64,000 nt of DNA, taken from Escherichia coli. GTDB taxonomy: Bacteria; Pseudomonadota; Gammaproteobacteria; Enterobacterales; Enterobacteriaceae. The notes under the pieces were generated by a model, which was not told the DNA's origin, searched no databases, and saw nothing but the letters and a program-made list of their open reading frames with translations. Shown one piece after another: positions 23,109 through 46,241 of the stretch; the first letter of the stretch is position 1; every line of letters starts with the position of its first letter. Location of the stretch: assembly GCF_044324785.1 (NCBI RefSeq), contig NZ_CP172127.1; one strand, 5' to 3'. The position numbers and the translations under genes were made by a program.

Positions 23109-23448
23109 ATTGATAACAGAGGGCGTTGCAGCGGGGTTGTCACTTAAGCGTATGGTCAACCTGACAACCCGGTGTCCTCAACGGGGAAGGAATAACCCCG
23201 CCATACTTACCGCCGCGCCATTTCGCGGGTTGCCACAACCGGAAGCGCACGGTCGACGAAAATTTAACGACAGGCTATCTATGAACCAGCTACCTCGCCG
23301 TGCGCTTTCGCGTTATGGTCTGACTTTTCAGGGAAATATCCTTTCAGTAAACTGTCAGTGCCGGATGCTCACCCGTGTCCGGCGCACGCACTCCACCTCA
23401 CCCGTGGAGAACTCCTTAATTACCAACCTTAGCTTCGTTGGTTAGCTA

Positions 23449-23667
23449 TTAACGCGGGTATGTAATCATTCTGGCAATGCTTAATGCCGCTGCTTTTTCC
23501 AGATTGGTGATATCCTGCTCCAGAGAGAACAGATTTTCAGCCTGCTTAGCCCTGGCTTCATTAGCCCATTTCAGATCCTGCGCTGCATTAATTTTCTGGT
23601 GCATCCACTCATAAAGTTCATCATCGGTATAGTCTGGCGCGATGATAACGGGTTCTCGTTTCTGCAT
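23449..23667 (-). CDS. ydfC: Qin-type protein YdfC
   Basis: 72-aa ORF in the conserved dicB operon position. Confidence 0.8.
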   Translation of the reverse strand: MQKREPVIIAPDYTDDELYEWMHQKINAAQDLKWANEARAKQAENLFSLEQDITNLEKAAALSIARMITYPR

Positions 23668-23696
23668 ACTGATTCCTTGCGGTGCTGTTTCGCTTA

Positions 23697-23825
23697 TCAG
23701 CCGTTAGATTTTGCCGAACTGGAAAGCGCCTGTTTAAATTCGCTGAAGCTGAGAGCTTCTTCGCCTTCGGCAAGGCCTTCGAAGTATTCTTCGTAAGCCT
23801 TTTCCATGATTGTGTCGAAATCCAT
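23697..23825 (-). CDS. ydfB: Qin-type small protein YdfB
   Basis: Manual translation MDFDTIMEKAYEEYFEGLAEGEEALSFSEFKQALSSSAKSNG, 42 aa, below the ORF-track length cutoff. Confidence 0.75.
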   Translation of the reverse strand: MDFDTIMEKAYEEYFEGLAEGEEALSFSEFKQALSSSAKSNG

Positions 23826-23826
23826 A

Positions 23827-23982
23827 TCACCCACCTGAATTTCTTTCCAGCCAGCGACGCGCTCCAGATTCGGTTTTAAACGTTTTGCTTTTGGTATACG
23901 TCATTGCGGTGAACGTGCCGTCCTGGTTTGGAAACACGCCGTACACCAGAGATTCGTTGTTGCCAAGATCGATAGTATCCAT
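23827..23982 (-). CDS. ydfA: Qin-type small protein YdfA
   Basis: 51 aa from MDTIDLGNNESLVYGVF, first gene of the dicB operon. Confidence 0.8.
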   Translation of the reverse strand: MDTIDLGNNESLVYGVFPNQDGTFTAMTYTKSKTFKTESGARRWLERNSGG

Positions 23983-24095
23983 GCTGACCTCATTTCCCCT
24001 TAACGCCGGGGTAGCGGAACTGTTTGCTGAGAACACCGTGCGGTGTCTTGATGGAAAATAATTTAGAATAACCTAACATGAGAGGCAAGTGTTTT

Positions 24096-24113
24096 TGTTA
24101 GATTGATCTAACA
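24096..24113. promoter_or_regulatory. 18-bp palindromic operator (TGTTAGA-N4-TCTAACA) in the dicB-operon promoter region
   Basis: Perfect palindrome tgttagattgatctaaca between dicA and ydfA; same half-sites as the site at 24607-24624. Confidence 0.5.
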
Positions 24114-24149
24114 AAAAGGGTGGGCGCAACTAATCACTTGAAAAGAATG

Positions 24150-24557
24150 TTATTTTATTGATTTATTTTTACGCGCTTTAAGCATTTCTTCGAAGAGTTT
24201 GTTGAAGTTTTCTACTCTTGCGCGCATTTCAGACAGCAAGGCTTCCTGCTCGGAAGATGGAAGAGCATCGAATAATTCGATCAATTCTTTGTGGTTGGGA
24301 GTTAGCTCTGTTTCCACATGAAGTTCTTGTGCAGGCACTGGTGCCTTGTCTTCGTCACCAAACATTAGCCATGTAGGTGAGCACTTCAGAGCATCCGCTA
24401 AAGCAAACAATCGTTTTCCGACTGGCTGGGTTTCGTCTCTTTCCCATTGTGAAATTGTGACGTGAGCAACTCCAGCGAGGCGCGCGGCTTCTCGTTGTGT
24501 TAAGCGTAATTCTTTTCGTCGCGCCAGAACTCGCTGGCCCAGGGTTCTTGTATCCAT
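24150..24557 (-). CDS. dicA: Cro/C1-type HTH repressor, DicA-like
   Basis: 135 aa with N-terminal HTH (LRLTQREAARLAGVAHVTISQWE); divergent from dicC. Confidence 0.8.
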   Translation of the reverse strand: MDTRTLGQRVLARRKELRLTQREAARLAGVAHVTISQWERDETQPVGKRLFALADALKCSPTWLMFGDEDKAPVPAQELHVETELTPNHKELIELFDALPSSEQEALLSEMRARVENFNKLFEEMLKARKNKSIK

Positions 24558-24606
24558 AGTTAGGTAATTCTAATTTTTCTTGACTTAGGTATCCCGCGCA
24601 CAATAA

Positions 24607-24624
24607 TGTTAGAAAAGTCTAACA
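24607..24624. promoter_or_regulatory. 18-bp palindromic operator in the dicA-dicC divergent promoter region
   Basis: tgttagaaaagtctaaca just upstream of the dicC start, with a TTGACT -35-like hexamer at 24580-24585. Confidence 0.5.
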
Positions 24625-24634
24625 AGAGGGGGAT

Positions 24635-24865
24635 TTGATGCTTAAAGTTGACGCAATTACTTTTTTTGGCAGCAAAACAAAGCTTGCCAATGCCGCAGGA
24701 GTGAGGCTGGCAAGTGTTGCTGCTTGGGGGATACTGGTTCCTGAAGGTCGCGCGATGCGTCTACAGGAGGCATCTGGCGGGGAGCTTCAGTATGATCCCA
24801 AAGTTTATGATGAATATCGTAAGACGAAGCGGGCGGGGCGGTTGAACAATGAAAATCACTCCTGA
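24635..24865 (+). CDS. dicC: Cro-like regulator DicC
   Basis: 76 aa; C-terminal RAMRLQEASGGELQYDPKVYDEYRKTKRAG matches recalled DicC. Confidence 0.8.
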   Translation: MMLKVDAITFFGSKTKLANAAGVRLASVAAWGILVPEGRAMRLQEASGGELQYDPKVYDEYRKTKRAGRLNNENHS

Positions 24866-25370
24866 ACAGGCTCGTGAGGCTCTGGATGCCTGGATATGTC
24901 GACCAGGAATGACACAGGAGCAGGCGACGATATTAATCACTGAAGCATTCTGGGCTTTGAAAGAGCGCCCGAACATCGATGTTCAGCGTGTCACAGATGA
25001 AGGTGGCGCGGTTGATCAGCGAGCGCTTGGTGTTAATCGAGTGAAGATATTCGAACGCTGGAAGGCTATCGACACCAGGGATAAGCGTGAAAAGTTCACG
25101 GCGCTAGTGCCTGCGATTATGGAGGCTATCCGGATTAGTGATTTCAGGTTGTATCGTGAAATTACTGACGGAAAAAGCATCACGTGCATGATCGCCGGGT
25201 TAAACAAAGAATATGGCGATGTGGTGGAGTCCGGACTGCTTTTTGCTGATCCTGCCGTAGTGGATCGTGAAACTGACGAACTTATAGAAAAAGCAATTGC
25301 TTTCAAGCTTGCGTATCGACAGCAATACCAACAAAAAGCTGGATGGAATTATGAGCCTTCTTTTTGCTGA
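24849..25370 (+). CDS. hypothetical phage early protein (cII/YdaT position)
   Basis: 173-aa ORF overlapping the dicC stop; function not recognisable from sequence. Confidence 0.45.
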   Translation: MKITPEQAREALDAWICRPGMTQEQATILITEAFWALKERPNIDVQRVTDEGGAVDQRALGVNRVKIFERWKAIDTRDKREKFTALVPAIMEAIRISDFRLYREITDGKSITCMIAGLNKEYGDVVESGLLFADPAVVDRETDELIEKAIAFKLAYRQQYQQKAGWNYEPSFC

Positions 25371-26316
25371 ACGCCCACTGGTTATAAACACGCAGCTGGC
25401 AATGAAAATTGGCTTAAACGAAGCCATTGTTTTGCAACAACTGCACTACTGGTTGAGAGATACCAACTCCGGCATGGAATGTGATGGTGTTCGCTGGATT
25501 TATAACACAACGGAACAATGGCTGGAACAGTTCCCATTCTGGTCAGAGTCAACGTTAAAGCGCGCGTTTGCAAGTCTGAAAACGCTGGGGCTTTTGCGTT
25601 GTGAAAAGCTCAATAAATCAAAGCGCGATATGACCAATTTCTACACGATCAACTATGGGAGCGAGCTTTTAGATGGTGGCAAATTGAGCGAATCCATCGG
25701 TTCAAAATGCGCCGCTCCATCAGGTCAAAATGACACGATGGAAGAGGTCAAAATGAAACGCTCCATTGATTCAAAACGACCCAATGTCATCGGGTCAAAA
25801 TGGCCTGATGATCTTACAGAGAATACAACAGAGATTACTACAGAGAATAAAAACACTTTTCGTCCGGAAGCTTCGCAACCGGACCCGCAGACGACTGAAC
25901 AGGATTTTTTAACCCGGAACTCCGACGCGGTTGTGTTTAGTGCGAAAAAACGCCAGTGGGGTAGCAGGGAGGATTTGGCGTGTGCGCAGTGGATCTGGGG
26001 GCGGATCGTGGGTCTCTACGAACAGGCAGCCAGTGATGATGGCGAGATCATGCGACCAAAAGAGCCTAACTGGACTGCCTGGGCCAATGACGTGCGCACA
26101 ATGCGGATGCTGGATGGCAGAAGCCACAGACAAATTTGCGAAATGTTTGGTCGGGTTCAGCGAGATCCATTCTGGGTAAAAAACATCATGAGCCCGTCAA
26201 AGCTCCGCGAAAAATGGGACGAACTGGTCATCCGCCTGGGACGTTCACCTGTACAGCGTTGTGTTAATCATATTTCTGAACCGGATACAGAAATTCCGCC
26301 TGGTTTCAGAGGATAA
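25297..26316 (+). CDS. phage replication initiation/organizer protein (O-like)
   Basis: N-terminal winged-helix replisome-organizer-like region, acidic linker, conserved C-terminal domain; true start probably MSLLFAERP at 25351. Confidence 0.6.
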   Translation: MLSSLRIDSNTNKKLDGIMSLLFAERPLVINTQLAMKIGLNEAIVLQQLHYWLRDTNSGMECDGVRWIYNTTEQWLEQFPFWSESTLKRAFASLKTLGLLRCEKLNKSKRDMTNFYTINYGSELLDGGKLSESIGSKCAAPSGQNDTMEEVKMKRSIDSKRPNVIGSKWPDDLTENTTEITTENKNTFRPEASQPDPQTTEQDFLTRNSDAVVFSAKKRQWGSREDLACAQWIWGRIVGLYEQAASDDGEIMRPKEPNWTAWANDVRTMRMLDGRSHRQICEMFGRVQRDPFWVKNIMSPSKLREKWDELVIRLGRSPVQRCVNHISEPDTEIPPGFRG

Positions 26317-26356
26317 GTGTTGATTTCAGGTCATGAGGTAATTTTAAGGGGGACTT

Positions 26357-26779
26357 GTGGCAAAAGTTTTTACACAAGAAGAGCGGGAAAAAATTAAATG
26401 GCAGGTGGTGGAACTCGTGCGCCAGAGCGGCCGTGAGACGTTACGGCAACTGGAAGCTAAAACAGGTGCGACTAGATATCTGATGAGCGTTCTTGCCAGA
26501 GAGCTGGTAGCCAGTGGCGATGTATACAACTCCGGCTACGGGTTATTCCCCTCTGAACAGGCGCGTAAGGACTGGCAAAACGCCCGCAAAAAACTCTCGA
26601 GGGCAAAGGTGAAGAAACCTGCTGTGGTTGATCCGGACCTTATCTGGTCATCACCTGACGGAGAAATACGTCGCTACGACAGTCGCCTAAACATAATCTG
26701 TCGCGAGTGCCGGAAGAGCGAAGTTATGCAGCGCATACTGGCTTTCTATCAGGGTAATTTTCAGGACGTGGCGCAGTGA
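26357..26779 (+). CDS. hypothetical phage protein
   Basis: 140-aa ORF with good coding character, no recognisable motif. Confidence 0.45.
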   Translation: MAKVFTQEEREKIKWQVVELVRQSGRETLRQLEAKTGATRYLMSVLARELVASGDVYNSGYGLFPSEQARKDWQNARKKLSRAKVKKPAVVDPDLIWSSPDGEIRRYDSRLNIICRECRKSEVMQRILAFYQGNFQDVAQ

Positions 26780-27210
26780 GTGCACCGGCAACCATTCTTG
26801 ATATGTGCTGTGGCAGCCGCATGTTCTGGTTCGATAAGTCTGACGAACGGGCGATATTTAGCGATATCAGAAAAGAAGGATACACATTACGCAATGGGAG
26901 ACGCTTGATTATCAGCCCTGACATTATCGCAGATTTTCGTGCATTATCATTTGCAGACGCATCTTTTTCGATGGTTGTATTAGACCCTCCGCATCTTGAG
27001 CGTGTTGGTGATAACGCCTGGATGGGAAAGAAATATGGACGGCTGAATAAAGATGCCTGGCGTGATGATTTGCGACAGAGATTTAAAGAAGCTTTTCGGG
27101 TGTTGAGGCCGCACGGCGTTCTGATTTTTTAATGGAATGAAACGCAAATACCGGTAAGCCAGATTCTGGCACTGACAGATAGAAAGCCTGTTATCTGTCA
27201 ACGAACAGGG
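26776..27210 (+). pseudogene. truncated phage DNA methyltransferase (amino-MTase with DPPH motif)
   Basis: VLDPPHL catalytic motif; stop inside a T-run at 27130-27132, similarity continues about 26 codons in-frame after it. Confidence 0.6.
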
Positions 27211-27554
27211 AAAAAACGATAAAACCCACTGGATTATTTTTATGAAAGAGGCATCCAGTGAGTAGATTCGTAAGGTTACAGATACGTATATCTGAATAAT
27301 TAAATTCAGTTCTGTAAATAAAACTTAATCCTTAACCGGATGGATTTCTGCACCCTCAGAACATCAGGAGGCCGCCCGAAAGGGCGGTAGTGAAATGCGA
27401 AAGTTCAAAATTATTATTGAAACGGGAATAGCTGGTGGAGATTTTGAGGATGTATTCGAAGTGGACGATGACGCAACACCTGATGAAATTCATGACGGAG
27501 CATAAGAAATTTTCTTTAACTACTGCAATTACTCATACCACGAAATAAAAGACG

Positions 27555-28030
27555 ATGAGGAAGAACAAAGTGGCTGATTTTTGTTCAGCTAAATATAACA
27601 TCAGTTTTGAAGAGCGGGATGAACTATTAATGGACTATGGTGAGTTACGCGGTGGAAGTGCTGCTGATGTCGAATCCTAGCGTGATGACTATGAAGCGGG
27701 AAAAACTCCGGTCGAAGCATATTGTGAGGAGTGGGGCGATGAATGAGCGAGATTAATTATCAGGAAGGGCATGAAACGGCGGGGCAAGCAAAACCAGTGA
27801 CATGGCGATATCGCTACGTGAAAAAAGGCGTTACGGACTTTCAGGGGAAGTAGTGGTCTGGTGACTGGAAATATGTACCGAAAAAAGAGGATTGTAACGA
27901 CAGGCCGAACTATCAAATTCAGGCCTTATTCACTGCCTCACCAGTCCCGGTTACATCAGAAGAATTGGTTAAAGCTGTGCACTTTTATGAACAACTAAAA
28001 CGCGAAAATCCACCAACATCCGGCAACTAG
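27555..28030 (+). pseudogene. two translationally coupled small ORFs, each interrupted by one in-frame TAG
   Basis: Frame-0 ORF 27555-27746 has TAG at 27678; overlapping frame-2 ORF 27743-28030 (MSEINYQEGHE...) has TAG at 27851. Confidence 0.35.
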
Positions 28031-28284
28031 ATTAATGGGTTAACTATGTCGGTTAAACGACCAGCCAACTGAAAAAGCGGAAACCTGATTACAGGTTGCC
28101 AGATAAGGCAATGAGCTACCTGGCGCGGAACGGACTGATAAGTATGGGGAATGTTTTACGATGAACCTTTAGACTAAAGAGTTTGTAACGCTATGTAAGT
28201 GATTTTTTCTGGTTTAGATATTTATATGTCCGGCCAAATTGAGGTGTGTTTAAATGTAATTGCACATTGATTGTAGGAGGAATA

Positions 28285-28464
28285 ATGAAAAACGCATTGC
28301 AGTTTTTGTTTGTTGCGTTCTGGTTGTTCGCATCATGTATGCCCATCATCTTCACAGCAAGGTATATGGAAAAAGTTGATGTTTTGATATTAATATTTGG
28401 ATATATAAATGCCCTTTTTTTAGGGGTGTTCATGGCGGTCATGTGCATTGAATACTGGCGGTAA
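28285..28464 (+). CDS. small two-helix membrane protein, unknown function
   Basis: 59 aa from MKNALQFLFVAFWLFASCMPIIF, preceded by AGGAGG Shine-Dalgarno. Confidence 0.45.
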   Translation: MKNALQFLFVAFWLFASCMPIIFTARYMEKVDVLILIFGYINALFLGVFMAVMCIEYWR

Positions 28465-29755
28465 ATACAGCGAACTCCATTGGTTTAGTTGGATATTTAC
28501 TGTGCTGGACAAAAACGGTTTGCGGGGAAATCTTAGTTAAGTAGAATGACTGCGGGTGCTTGAGGCTATCTGCCTCGGGCACGAACACCAACGGCAGGTA
28601 GAGAAAAGCCCCAGTTAACATTACGCGTCCTGCAAGACGCTTAACATTAATCTGAGGCCAATTTCATGCCAGACACATGTAGGTTAGCCTCTTACGTGCC
28701 GAAAGGCAAGGAGAAGCAGGCTATTGTTAACACCAAGCTGTAATGTCCCCTTTGAACCATTCTAAAATGTCCCCAGACAATTCTCTGGGGGATTTTTCAT
28801 GACCAAAGAAACTGTTACGATGAGTCATAAGGAACTCCACCGACTTCAGATTATTCAGGAGTCAATTAATCGACATATTACTCAGGAACAAGCTGCGGCA
28901 CGCATTGGCATTTCTATTCGGCAGGTTAAACGTCTGGTGCAACGGTATAGAAATGAAGGGCCTTCTGGTCTGGTTTCCCACCGACGTGGAAAGCGTCCTA
29001 ATAATTCCTTTTCTACTGAATTCAGAGCAACAGTAATTTTACTCCTCAAAGGCCGTTACGCTGATTTTGGACCTACGTTTGCGTGCGAAAAATTGCGCGA
29101 GATACACGGTTTATCTTTATCCGTTGAAACTCTCAGAAAGTGGATGATAGAAGAGGGGGGTATGGCGTGAACGCCGTCGTAAAATTGCCCGTATATATCA
29201 ACGCCGCATGCGACGACCATCTTACGGTGAACTGATCCAGATTGATGGCTCACCTCATGACTGGTTTGAAAATCGAGGCCCCAGATGTACACTGATCGTT
29301 TTCATTGATGATGCCACCAGTGCGTTGATGGCGTTGCGTTTTGTGCCTGCTGAAACAACCCGGGCTTACATGGAAACCCTCCGGGGTTACCTTAATGATC
29401 ATGGCGTACCGCTCGCTCTCTACTCTGATAGACACAGTATATTCAGGGTAAATAACCCAGAGCGGGAAGGTGAGCTGACCCAGTTCACTCGTGCGATAAA
29501 GACACTGGGCATCGAGCCAATCCATGCCAACAGCCCGCAGGCAAAAGGGCGGGTAGAGCGCGCCAATCAGACACTACAGGACAGGCTGGTCAAAGAAATG
29601 CGGCTTCAGAATATCAGTGATATTGAAACAGCAAATGCATGGTTGCCGACCTTTATTGAAGCCTATAACAACCGGTTCGCTACGTCGCCTCGTACTACTG
29701 ATAATGCTCATCTTGATGTGCACCATTCTGAAGAGGAACTGGGTTATATCTTCAG

Positions 29756-29764
29756 CCTACAGGC
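29756..29764. repeat. 9-bp target site duplication (CCTACAGGC), left copy
   Basis: Identical 9-mer immediately flanks both ends of the IS. Confidence 0.8.
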
Positions 29765-30821
29765 GGCTTTGTTGAATAAATCAGATTTCGGGTAAGTCTC
29801 CCCCGTAGCGGGTTGTGTTTTCAGGCAATACGCACGCTTTCAGGCATACCTGCTTTCGTCATTTTGTTCAGCGCTCGTACCAGGGCCATAGCCTCCGCAA
29901 CCTGACCATCGTAGTCACGCAGCGTCAGTGAACCCCCGAACAGCTGTTTTACCCGGTACATCGCCGTTTCCGCTATCGAGCGACGGTTGTAATCTGTTGT
30001 CCATTTCCACCGCGCATTACTCCCGGTCATTCGCTGATTAGCCACTGCACGGTTACGGTCTGCATATTCACCGGGCCAGTAACCCGCACCTTTTCGGGGA
30101 GGGATAAGCGCGCTGATTTTCTTACGCCGCAGTTCATCGTGACATAGCCGGGTATCGTAAGCGCCATCGGCGGCGGCTGACCTGATTTTCCGGTGGGTTT
30201 GCCGGATTAACCCGGGGAAGGCCTCTGAGTCCGTAACGTTGTTCAGCGACAGGTCAGCGCAGATGATTTCATGTGTTTTACTGTCAACGGCGAGATGCAG
30301 CTTACGCCAGATACGGCGGCGTTCCTGGCCATGCTTTTTGACTTTCCACTCGCCTTCACCGAAGACCTTCAGCCCGGTGGAATCAATTACCAGGTGTGCG
30401 ATTTCACCCCGGGTGGGCGTTTTGAAACTGACATTAACCGACTTTGCCCGCCTGCTGACACAGCTGTAATCCGGGCAGCGTAGCGGAACGTTCATCAGAG
30501 AAAAAATGGAATCAATAAAGCCCTGCGCAGCCCGCAGGGTCAGCCTGAATACGCGTTTAATGACCAGCACAGTAGTGATGGCAAGGTCAGAATAGCGCTG
30601 AGGTCTGCCTCGTGAAGAAGGTGTTGCTGACTCATACCAGGCCTGAATAGCTTCATCATCCAGCCAGAAAGTTATGGAGCCACGGTTGATGAGGGCTTTA
30701 TTGTAGGTGGGCCAGTTGGTGATTTTGAACTTTTGCTTTGCCACGGAACGGTCTGCGTTGTCGGGAAGATACGTGATCTGATCCTTCAACTCAGCAAAAG
30801 TTCGATTTATTCAACAAAGCC
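29765..30821 (-). mobile_element. IS903-group insertion sequence (IS5 family), 1057 bp
   Basis: Perfect 18-bp terminal inverted repeats GGCTTTGTTGAATAAATC, 1057-bp length and 9-bp duplication typical of IS903/IS102. Confidence 0.9.
29821..30744 (-). CDS. IS903-type DDE transposase
   Basis: ORF inside the IS with DDE residues and YREK-like signature; probable GTG start giving 307 aa. Confidence 0.85.
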   Translation of the reverse strand: MAKQKFKITNWPTYNKALINRGSITFWLDDEAIQAWYESATPSSRGRPQRYSDLAITTVLVIKRVFRLTLRAAQGFIDSIFSLMNVPLRCPDYSCVSRRAKSVNVSFKTPTRGEIAHLVIDSTGLKVFGEGEWKVKKHGQERRRIWRKLHLAVDSKTHEIICADLSLNNVTDSEAFPGLIRQTHRKIRSAAADGAYDTRLCHDELRRKKISALIPPRKGAGYWPGEYADRNRAVANQRMTGSNARWKWTTDYNRRSIAETAMYRVKQLFGGSLTLRDYDGQVAEAMALVRALNKMTKAGMPESVRIA

Positions 30822-33034: not shown

Positions 33035-33105
33035 ACCAAAGCATGACATCTCTGTTTCGCACCGAAGGTGACACTTCTGCTTTGCGTTGACAGGAGAAGC
33101 AGGCT

Positions 33106-33261
33106 ATGAAGCAGCAAAAGGCGATGTTAATCGCCCTGATCGTCATCTGTTTAACCGTCATAGTGACGGCACTGGTAACGAGGAAAGACCTCTGCGAGGT
33201 ACGAATCCGAACCGGCCAGACGGAGGTCGCTGTCTTCACAGCTTACGAACCTGAGGAGTAA
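33106..33261 (+). CDS. hokD: Hok-family membrane toxin HokD (RelF)
   Basis: Manual translation MKQQKAMLIALIVICLTVIVTALVTRKDLCEVRIRTGQTEVAVFTAYEPEE, 51 aa, below the ORF-track cutoff. Confidence 0.85.
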   Translation: MKQQKAMLIALIVICLTVIVTALVTRKDLCEVRIRTGQTEVAVFTAYEPEE

Positions 33262-33477
33262 GAGACCCGGCGGGGGAGAAATCCCTCGCCACCTCTGATG
33301 TGGCAGGCATCCTCAACGCACCCGCACTTAACCCGCTTCGGCGGGTTTTTGTTTTTATTTTCAACGCGTTTGAAGTTCTGGACGGTGCCGGAATAGAATC
33401 AAAAATACTTAAGTAGCGCGCAGGGATAAGAGGGATGGTCCCTTAAAGGGGAGAGCTAATTATCCGGAAGGATTCTG

Positions 33478-42534: not shown

Positions 42535-42560
<26 letters not shown>
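42015..42560 (+). CDS. nohA: terminase small subunit (lambda Nu1 homolog)
   Basis: 181 aa MEVNKKQLADIFGASIRTIQNWQEQGMPVLRGGGKGNEVLYD, matches recalled lambda Nu1. Confidence 0.9.

Positions 42561-46241
<3,681 letters not shown>

Follow-up and report, generated by a model that had tools for sequence, protein, structure and literature searches.

The window, by which we mean the whole 64-kb stretch of Escherichia coli DNA that was analysed, contains between positions 27395 and 28164 three consecutive small genes, which were originally translationally coupled. They follow a conserved intergenic module and the remnant of a methyltransferase gene (Table 1). The locus lies behind the replication genes in the early-right operon of a defective E. 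coli prophage of the lambdoid, Qin/DicB type. The first-pass annotation had described a complete 36-aa reading frame followed by two coupled frames, each with a single in-frame amber codon, and had named decayed pseudogenes as the simplest reading; this reading is supported by the homologues, by their sense codons and by the multiple lesions described below, while several of the gene models had to be revised.

Table 1. Features of the three-gene locus and its upstream flank, in window coordinates
Feature	Coordinates	Strand	Basis
SAM-dependent methyltransferase pseudogene	26776..27265	+	PGAP: frameshifted; internal stop (NZ_CP027462.1)
Intergenic module ahead of gene 1	27292..27394	+	conserved; fold, homology
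Gene 1, DUF7167 pseudogene, 60 codons	27395..27577	+	alignment, Pfam, PHROG, PGAP
Gene 2, phrog_519 pseudogene, 58 codons	27570..27746	+	translation, alignment, PHROG
Gene 3, phrog_660 pseudogene (intact form 171 aa)	27743..28164	+	translation, DNA alignment, PHROG, PGAP

The three genes and their prophage setting

The 36-aa reading frame (27395-27505) is not a complete gene, but corresponds to codons 1-36 of a DUF7167 gene of 60 codons, which is cut at 27503-27505 by an ochre codon. Here, codon 37 has changed from AAA (Lys) to TAA, and AAA is found at this position in all intact relatives. When the stop is bridged by lysine, residues 2-53 of the protein match Pfam DUF7167 (PF23768) at E = 2.5e-13, covering model positions 1-60 of 60, and a match to phrog_1997 over residues 1-57 likewise runs across the stop. 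In the record of the E. coli genome NZ_CP027462.1, which is 99.97% identical to window positions 23301-29765, PGAP lists the same interval as 'DUF7167 family protein, internal stop'.

The second gene had been thought to start at an ATG at 27555. This ATG is present only in the lineage of the window, relatives having GAA GAG, and the conserved start lies at 27570, where relatives have ATG and the window has GTG. From there, gene 2 overlaps the stop of gene 1 by 8 nt (GTGGCTGA at 27570-27577; ATGGCTGA in the conserved form of the junction), and its own end overlaps the start of gene 3 in an ATGA at 27743-27746. Codon 37 of gene 2 is TAG (27678-27680) in place of the TGG (Trp) found in the alleles that lack the stop, and intact CDSs of 58 aa are annotated in three relatives (L002, L004 and L006). 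The bridged protein matches phrog_519 over residues 1-58 (E = 1.2e-13). In the NZ_CP027462.1 record, gene 2 carries neither an annotation nor a pseudogene flag.

Gene 3 is the most heavily damaged of the three. Intact forms of 171, 119 and 104 aa occur among the relatives, and the lesions were scored against the 171-aa form of L065. Codon 37 has changed from CAG (Gln) to TAG (27851-27853), with CAG or CCG in relatives, and a 90-nt in-frame deletion is located at an AATCCRCCAG repeat at about 28007-28016. A second change from CAG to TAG is found at 28028-28030. The latter codon is not where the gene naturally stops, as had been assumed: CAG is found there in intact relatives, and the frame continues, past a deletion of 4 nt between 28061 and 28062, to a TGA at 28162-28164. 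The deletion shifts the tail (28063-28164) into the +2 frame, in which the conserved C-terminus ...LPDKAMSYLARNGLISMGNVLR* is encoded. Additional frameshifts that would spoil the homology of the bridged translation had been named beforehand as refuting the amber reading, and gene 3 contains such a frameshift. Once repaired, the protein can be aligned over its full length with the intact homologue of 171 aa (E = 2e-77), and gene 3 matches phrog_660 at E = 3.3e-28. Accordingly, PGAP describes the equivalent interval of NZ_CP027462.1 as a hypothetical protein, 'frameshifted; internal stop'. Searching the bridged proteins against phage families, as had been proposed, thus gave matches that span the stops in all three cases (DUF7167 and phrog_1997, phrog_519, phrog_660), and the codons opposite the three codon-37 stops are sense codons throughout the intact alleles (AAA, TGG and CAG/CCG, respectively). 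No Pfam family was found for genes 2 and 3, and no NCBIfam name for any of the three proteins.

Two further polymorphisms were observed in gene 3. A run of six A residues at 27821-27826 is extended to A7 or A8 in other amber-bearing alleles and constitutes a slippage hotspot; the A8 allele opens an out-of-frame ORF of 85 codons, which has received a protein annotation in some phage records. In addition, a 57-nt segment between CGGMAAC direct repeats (28028-28084) is shared by the window and L045, is missing from alleles of the L002/L004 type and represents a second small indel polymorphism of this gene.

In NZ_CP027462.1, the prophage is situated between rspB and lambda-like head genes. From the rspB side, it consists of genes for an integrase and an exonuclease, dicB, ydfABC and a repressor/Cro pair, followed by a YdaT-like gene, a replication gene, DUF977 and then the three-gene region, beyond which lie an IS fragment, ydfW, flxA, ydfV, relBE, hokD, rem and ydfU and, in the distal part, ydfT, cspF/B/I, lysis genes, nohA and the lambda-like head genes. 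Three successive pseudogenes are annotated by PGAP in this genome, for a SAM-dependent methyltransferase, the DUF7167 protein and the hypothetical protein. The open frame of the methyltransferase fragment spans 26776-27132 and is terminated at 27133 by a TAA within a T-run, and this pseudogene demonstrates that decay reaches outside the interval originally reported. The annotations of phage PhiR42_1 and of several genomes list the resulting 118-aa stub as an ordinary CDS.

Some rearrangements were seen further downstream. A full-length match to sok RNA (RF01794, 99.8 bits) is located at 28554-28725, and in phage 640R1 and similar relatives window position 28724 is joined directly to 33092, with an overlap of 16 nt. 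The other part of the locus lies at about 33092-33356, the coding start of hokD being predicted near 33096 by offset from the annotation of L087, and about 4.4 kb (IS fragments, ydfW, flxA, ydfV and relBE) appears to have been inserted into the hok/sok locus, parting sok and the 5' portion from hokD. Within this stretch, a segment of 1056 bp (29766-30821) is missing from NZ_CP027462.1, which is otherwise 99.9% identical; the segment has a minus-strand ORF of 322 aa (29821-30789) and is probably an additional IS copy inside a truncated ISEsa1-like transposase region.

An 801-bp region comprising the locus has matches in 2526 of 5426 complete E. coli genomes and is covered to at least 80% in 1522 of them; it is also found in a handful of induced lambdoid phages. 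The relatives were compared in an alignment with intact alleles (A1), in a separate DNA alignment of gene 3 (L065, L045, L070 and L084) and in 80 IMG/VR loci, all of which encode a DUF7167 protein 100% identical to the query and which are, therefore, informative on the allele diversity of gene 3 and weak for tests of structure.

The Shine-Dalgarno/hairpin module ahead of gene 1

Homology with all relatives starts at 27292, and the module between this position and gene 1 is unique in the window. The strong AGGAGG site and the GAAA-loop hairpin reported ahead of the start codon are indeed present: AGGAGG occupies 27366-27371, the hairpin 27371-27388, and the ATG follows at 27395. The hairpin (GCCGCCC-GAAA-GGGCGGU) has a stem of 7 bp and a predicted stability of -16.9 kcal/mol (z = -3.7 against shuffled sequences), and its 3' end is separated from the ATG by 6 nt. 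In the linear sequence, 23 nt lie between the Shine-Dalgarno motif and the ATG, more than a normal ribosome-binding site allows; closure of the hairpin would shorten this distance to about 6 nt. Thus, it is plausible that the module constitutes a putative split ribosome-binding site.

The part of the module with the Shine-Dalgarno motif and the hairpin recurs in other lambdoid phages (L082:2477-2574, L083:1534-1631 and L067:2477-2574), where it stands in front of a small gene unrelated to gene 1 (MTTLFRKEYP...). The stem variants among relatives consist of four C to T changes in the 5' arm that retain G.U pairs and of one A.C mismatch, and no compensatory double change in the stem occurs among the relatives compared. 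A role of the hairpin as an intrinsic terminator was rejected, as no T-run lies behind it and the terminator scan calls no terminator on either strand. Scanning 26500-29000 against Rfam returned no family for the hairpin or the surrounding region, the sole match being the sok RNA further downstream.

Premature stops, allele spread and the course of decay

The in-frame TAG codons at 27678-27680 and 27851-27853 and the further TAG at 28028-28030 were all confirmed in the sequence. It had been argued that an interruption of consecutive coupled genes by amber codons only would be unusual. This is not what the locus contains: the stops in the trio are TAA, TAG, TAG and TAG, another TAA ends the methyltransferase fragment, and gene 3 has a frameshift and a second amber. 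The three ambers, one from TGG and two from CAG, are all G:C>A:T transitions, the dominant class of spontaneous substitutions in E. coli. A one-step enumeration of the intact genes gave 16 sites at which such a transition creates TAG, 14 for TGA and two for TAA. Hence, the excess of ambers is not unusual, as G:C>A:T changes yield TAG at least as often as other stops in these genes.

How far each lesion has spread was determined with 55-mer queries centred on the variant, so that every 28-nt megablast seed contains the variant base, against the 5426 E. coli genomes. The codon-37 amber of gene 3 was recovered from 1158 genomes, the amber of gene 2 with window-type flanks from 505 and the ochre of gene 1 from 482, and because of this difference we conclude that the gene-3 amber is older or more widely spread than the stops in genes 1 and 2. 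All A7 and A8 frameshift alleles of gene 3 retain the TAG, and therefore the amber came first and further lesions were acquired later. The same TGG to TAG change of gene 2 was also found in the separately diverged phage 606R7 (L005) in a different flanking background, and of 86 relatives sampled, about half have a disrupted gene 3. Between intact alleles, pN/pS is 0.07-0.31, so that the genes are under purifying selection wherever they are open. Between the two amber-bearing gene-3 lineages (the window and L002/L004), pN/pS is 0.80, a value obtained from only eight differences. In gene 2, 10-12 non-synonymous differences separate the window lineage from the amber-free alleles L002 and L006, and two such differences separate these alleles from each other.

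Taken together, these observations argue that dispensable genes of the early operon have decayed neutrally in a defective prophage that is passed on vertically, a reading to which we assign a probability of roughly 0.93. The lesions themselves, the sense codons of the homologues, the differing spread of the alleles and the layering of secondary lesions are matters of observation; from them, we infer the neutrality of the process. A single inactivating hit in gene 3 would have been followed by the free accumulation of further lesions, the lesions being ordinary spontaneous mutations in genes that a vertically inherited prophage can presumably dispense with, and all three genes are dead in the lineage of the window, with nothing being read through or recoded. 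One feature does sit uneasily with this reading. The first premature stop is located at codon 37 in each of the three genes (27503, 27678 and 27851 for the starts 27395, 27570 and 27743), a placement that looks non-random. A common cause such as a shared motif or repeat was considered and rejected, since the contexts are unrelated, the mutations are A>T, G>A and C>T, and the allele frequencies differ. We treat the agreement as a coincidence, though a striking one.

That the trio might still be functional, with full-length proteins arising by read-through of the ambers, whether programmed or due to a suppressor tRNA, can hardly be maintained, even though TAG accounts for three of the four premature stops in genes 1-3 and the gene-3 amber is widespread (1158 genomes). 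Gene 1 is stopped by TAA and not by TAG, and gene 3 has a 4-nt frameshift that suppression cannot restore; therefore, suppression could not rescue either of them, and read-through in a suppressor background, as envisaged in the first-pass annotation, is not supported. At the stop positions, homologues have sense codons, other amber-bearing alleles have gone on to gain A-run frameshifts, and the pN/pS of 0.80 between amber-bearing lineages, based on eight differences, would point in the same direction. A search of the 64-kb window with ARAGORN revealed no tRNA gene, and the ORFs of the terminase (641 aa) and the portal protein (533 aa) in the window are uninterrupted; thus, nothing suggests recoding. 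Amber suppressors are not known to occur in wild-type E. coli. It is even less conceivable, to the point of being negligible, that the stops are sequencing or assembly errors of this window, as identical alleles recur in phage PhiR42_1 and, for genes 1, 2 and 3, in 482, 505 and 1158 independent complete genomes, respectively.

A further possibility, which need not exclude neutral decay, is that the loss of these genes was selected, in that their products or leaky expression of the early operon may be costly or toxic to the lysogen, so that null alleles arose repeatedly and spread. The recurrence of the gene-2 TGG to TAG change on two different backgrounds and the disruption of gene 3 in about half of the relatives leave some room for it against pure neutrality. 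In the same direction point the occurrence in gene 3, besides the amber, of two or more frameshift alleles that arose independently in the A-run, and the high frequency of this amber, which is carried by 1158 of the about 1520 genomes that have the region. YdaT-like, DicB and Kil-type neighbours in such operons are known host-toxic functions, which would fit as well. However, a transition can create a stop at only about six sites of gene 2, so that recurrence is unsurprising, and the A6 homopolymer is an intrinsic slippage hotspot, at which slippage in a dead gene needs no selection. The frameshifts have all occurred on the amber background, as fits neutral decay after a single event, vertical inheritance of the prophage accounts for the high allele frequency, and toxicity of the three proteins is a supposition. 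We therefore regard selected loss as distinctly unlikely and favour neutral decay. As a separate observation, the ORF of the large terminase subunit (42535-44460) is intact in the window, while an internal stop is annotated in NZ_CP027462.1; thus, the decay of this prophage has hit different genes in different strains.

Significance and relation to known systems

The case is one of routine pseudogene decay in a prophage, which for genes 1 and 3 had largely been flagged already by RefSeq in a near-identical genome. Its consequences are modest. A candidate for stop-codon read-through or recoding is removed, which matters little, and the gene models are corrected in that gene 1 is truncated by an ochre, the start of gene 2 is placed at 27570 and the end of gene 3 at 28164. 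The pattern described as amber-only is to be expected in E. coli from the bias towards G:C>A:T mutations. The only mildly interesting element is the cassette of Shine-Dalgarno motif, hairpin and ATG as a candidate split ribosome-binding site outside the T-even phages. It might be speculated, as an idea that we consider unlikely though not far-fetched, that the AGGAGG/GAAA-hairpin/ATG cassette (27292-27394), which is found ahead of two unrelated genes, may serve lambdoid phages as a portable element acting like the split ribosome-binding sites of T4 genes 38 and 25, and/or that genes 2 and 3 may have been inactivated repeatedly because early proteins toxic to the host are selected against in domesticated prophages. 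Amber suppression plays no part in either idea.

By its gene content, the prophage of the window appears to be the cryptic prophage Qin (DicB/relBE/hokD) in a more complete form. The two would represent the same chromosomal prophage, having in common the integrase, dicB, ydfABC and the DicA/DicC-type switch on the rspB side as well as relBE, hokD, rem, ydfU, cspB/F/I and nohA, and in both of them pseudogenes have been inactivated by point mutations, indels and IS insertions. The Qin remnant of K-12 presumably retains less of the early-right operon and of the head genes than the version in the window.

The closest undamaged counterpart of the locus is the intact DUF7167/phrog_519/phrog_660 trio of inducible E. 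coli lambdoid phages such as vB_EcoS-689R5 (ON470583). There, the genes occur in the same order with overlapping start/stop junctions and behind the same Shine-Dalgarno/hairpin module, at a nucleotide identity to the window of 88-92%. The phage copies are open (60, 58 and 119-171 aa), whereas the window copy has five disabling lesions and, beyond these, the change of the gene-2 start from ATG to GTG and the 90-nt in-frame deletion in gene 3.

With stop-codon-recoded phages and suppressor-dependent amber mutants, the locus shares the presence of in-frame TAG codons in phage genes. In contrast to recoded phages, the window has two types of stop, an accompanying frameshift and sense codons in the homologues, it lacks a suppressor tRNA, and its structural genes are uninterrupted.

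In its layout, the region in front of gene 1 is similar to the split ribosome-binding sites known from genes 38 and 25 of phage T4, in that a strong, distant Shine-Dalgarno motif is combined with an intervening stable hairpin. For these two T4 genes, Shine-Dalgarno spacings of 22 and 27 nt are described in a review as being cut to 5 and 11 nt by the hairpin, and mutations that destabilise the stem are said to lower translation (PMC3014915, citing Nivinskas et al. 1999, Malys & Nivinskas 2009). The window module is unrelated to them in sequence, and belongs to a lambdoid and not to a T-even phage. Its geometry is that of a split ribosome-binding site, with a linear spacing of more than 20 nt and an effective spacing of about 6 nt, compared to 5-11 nt for the T4 type.
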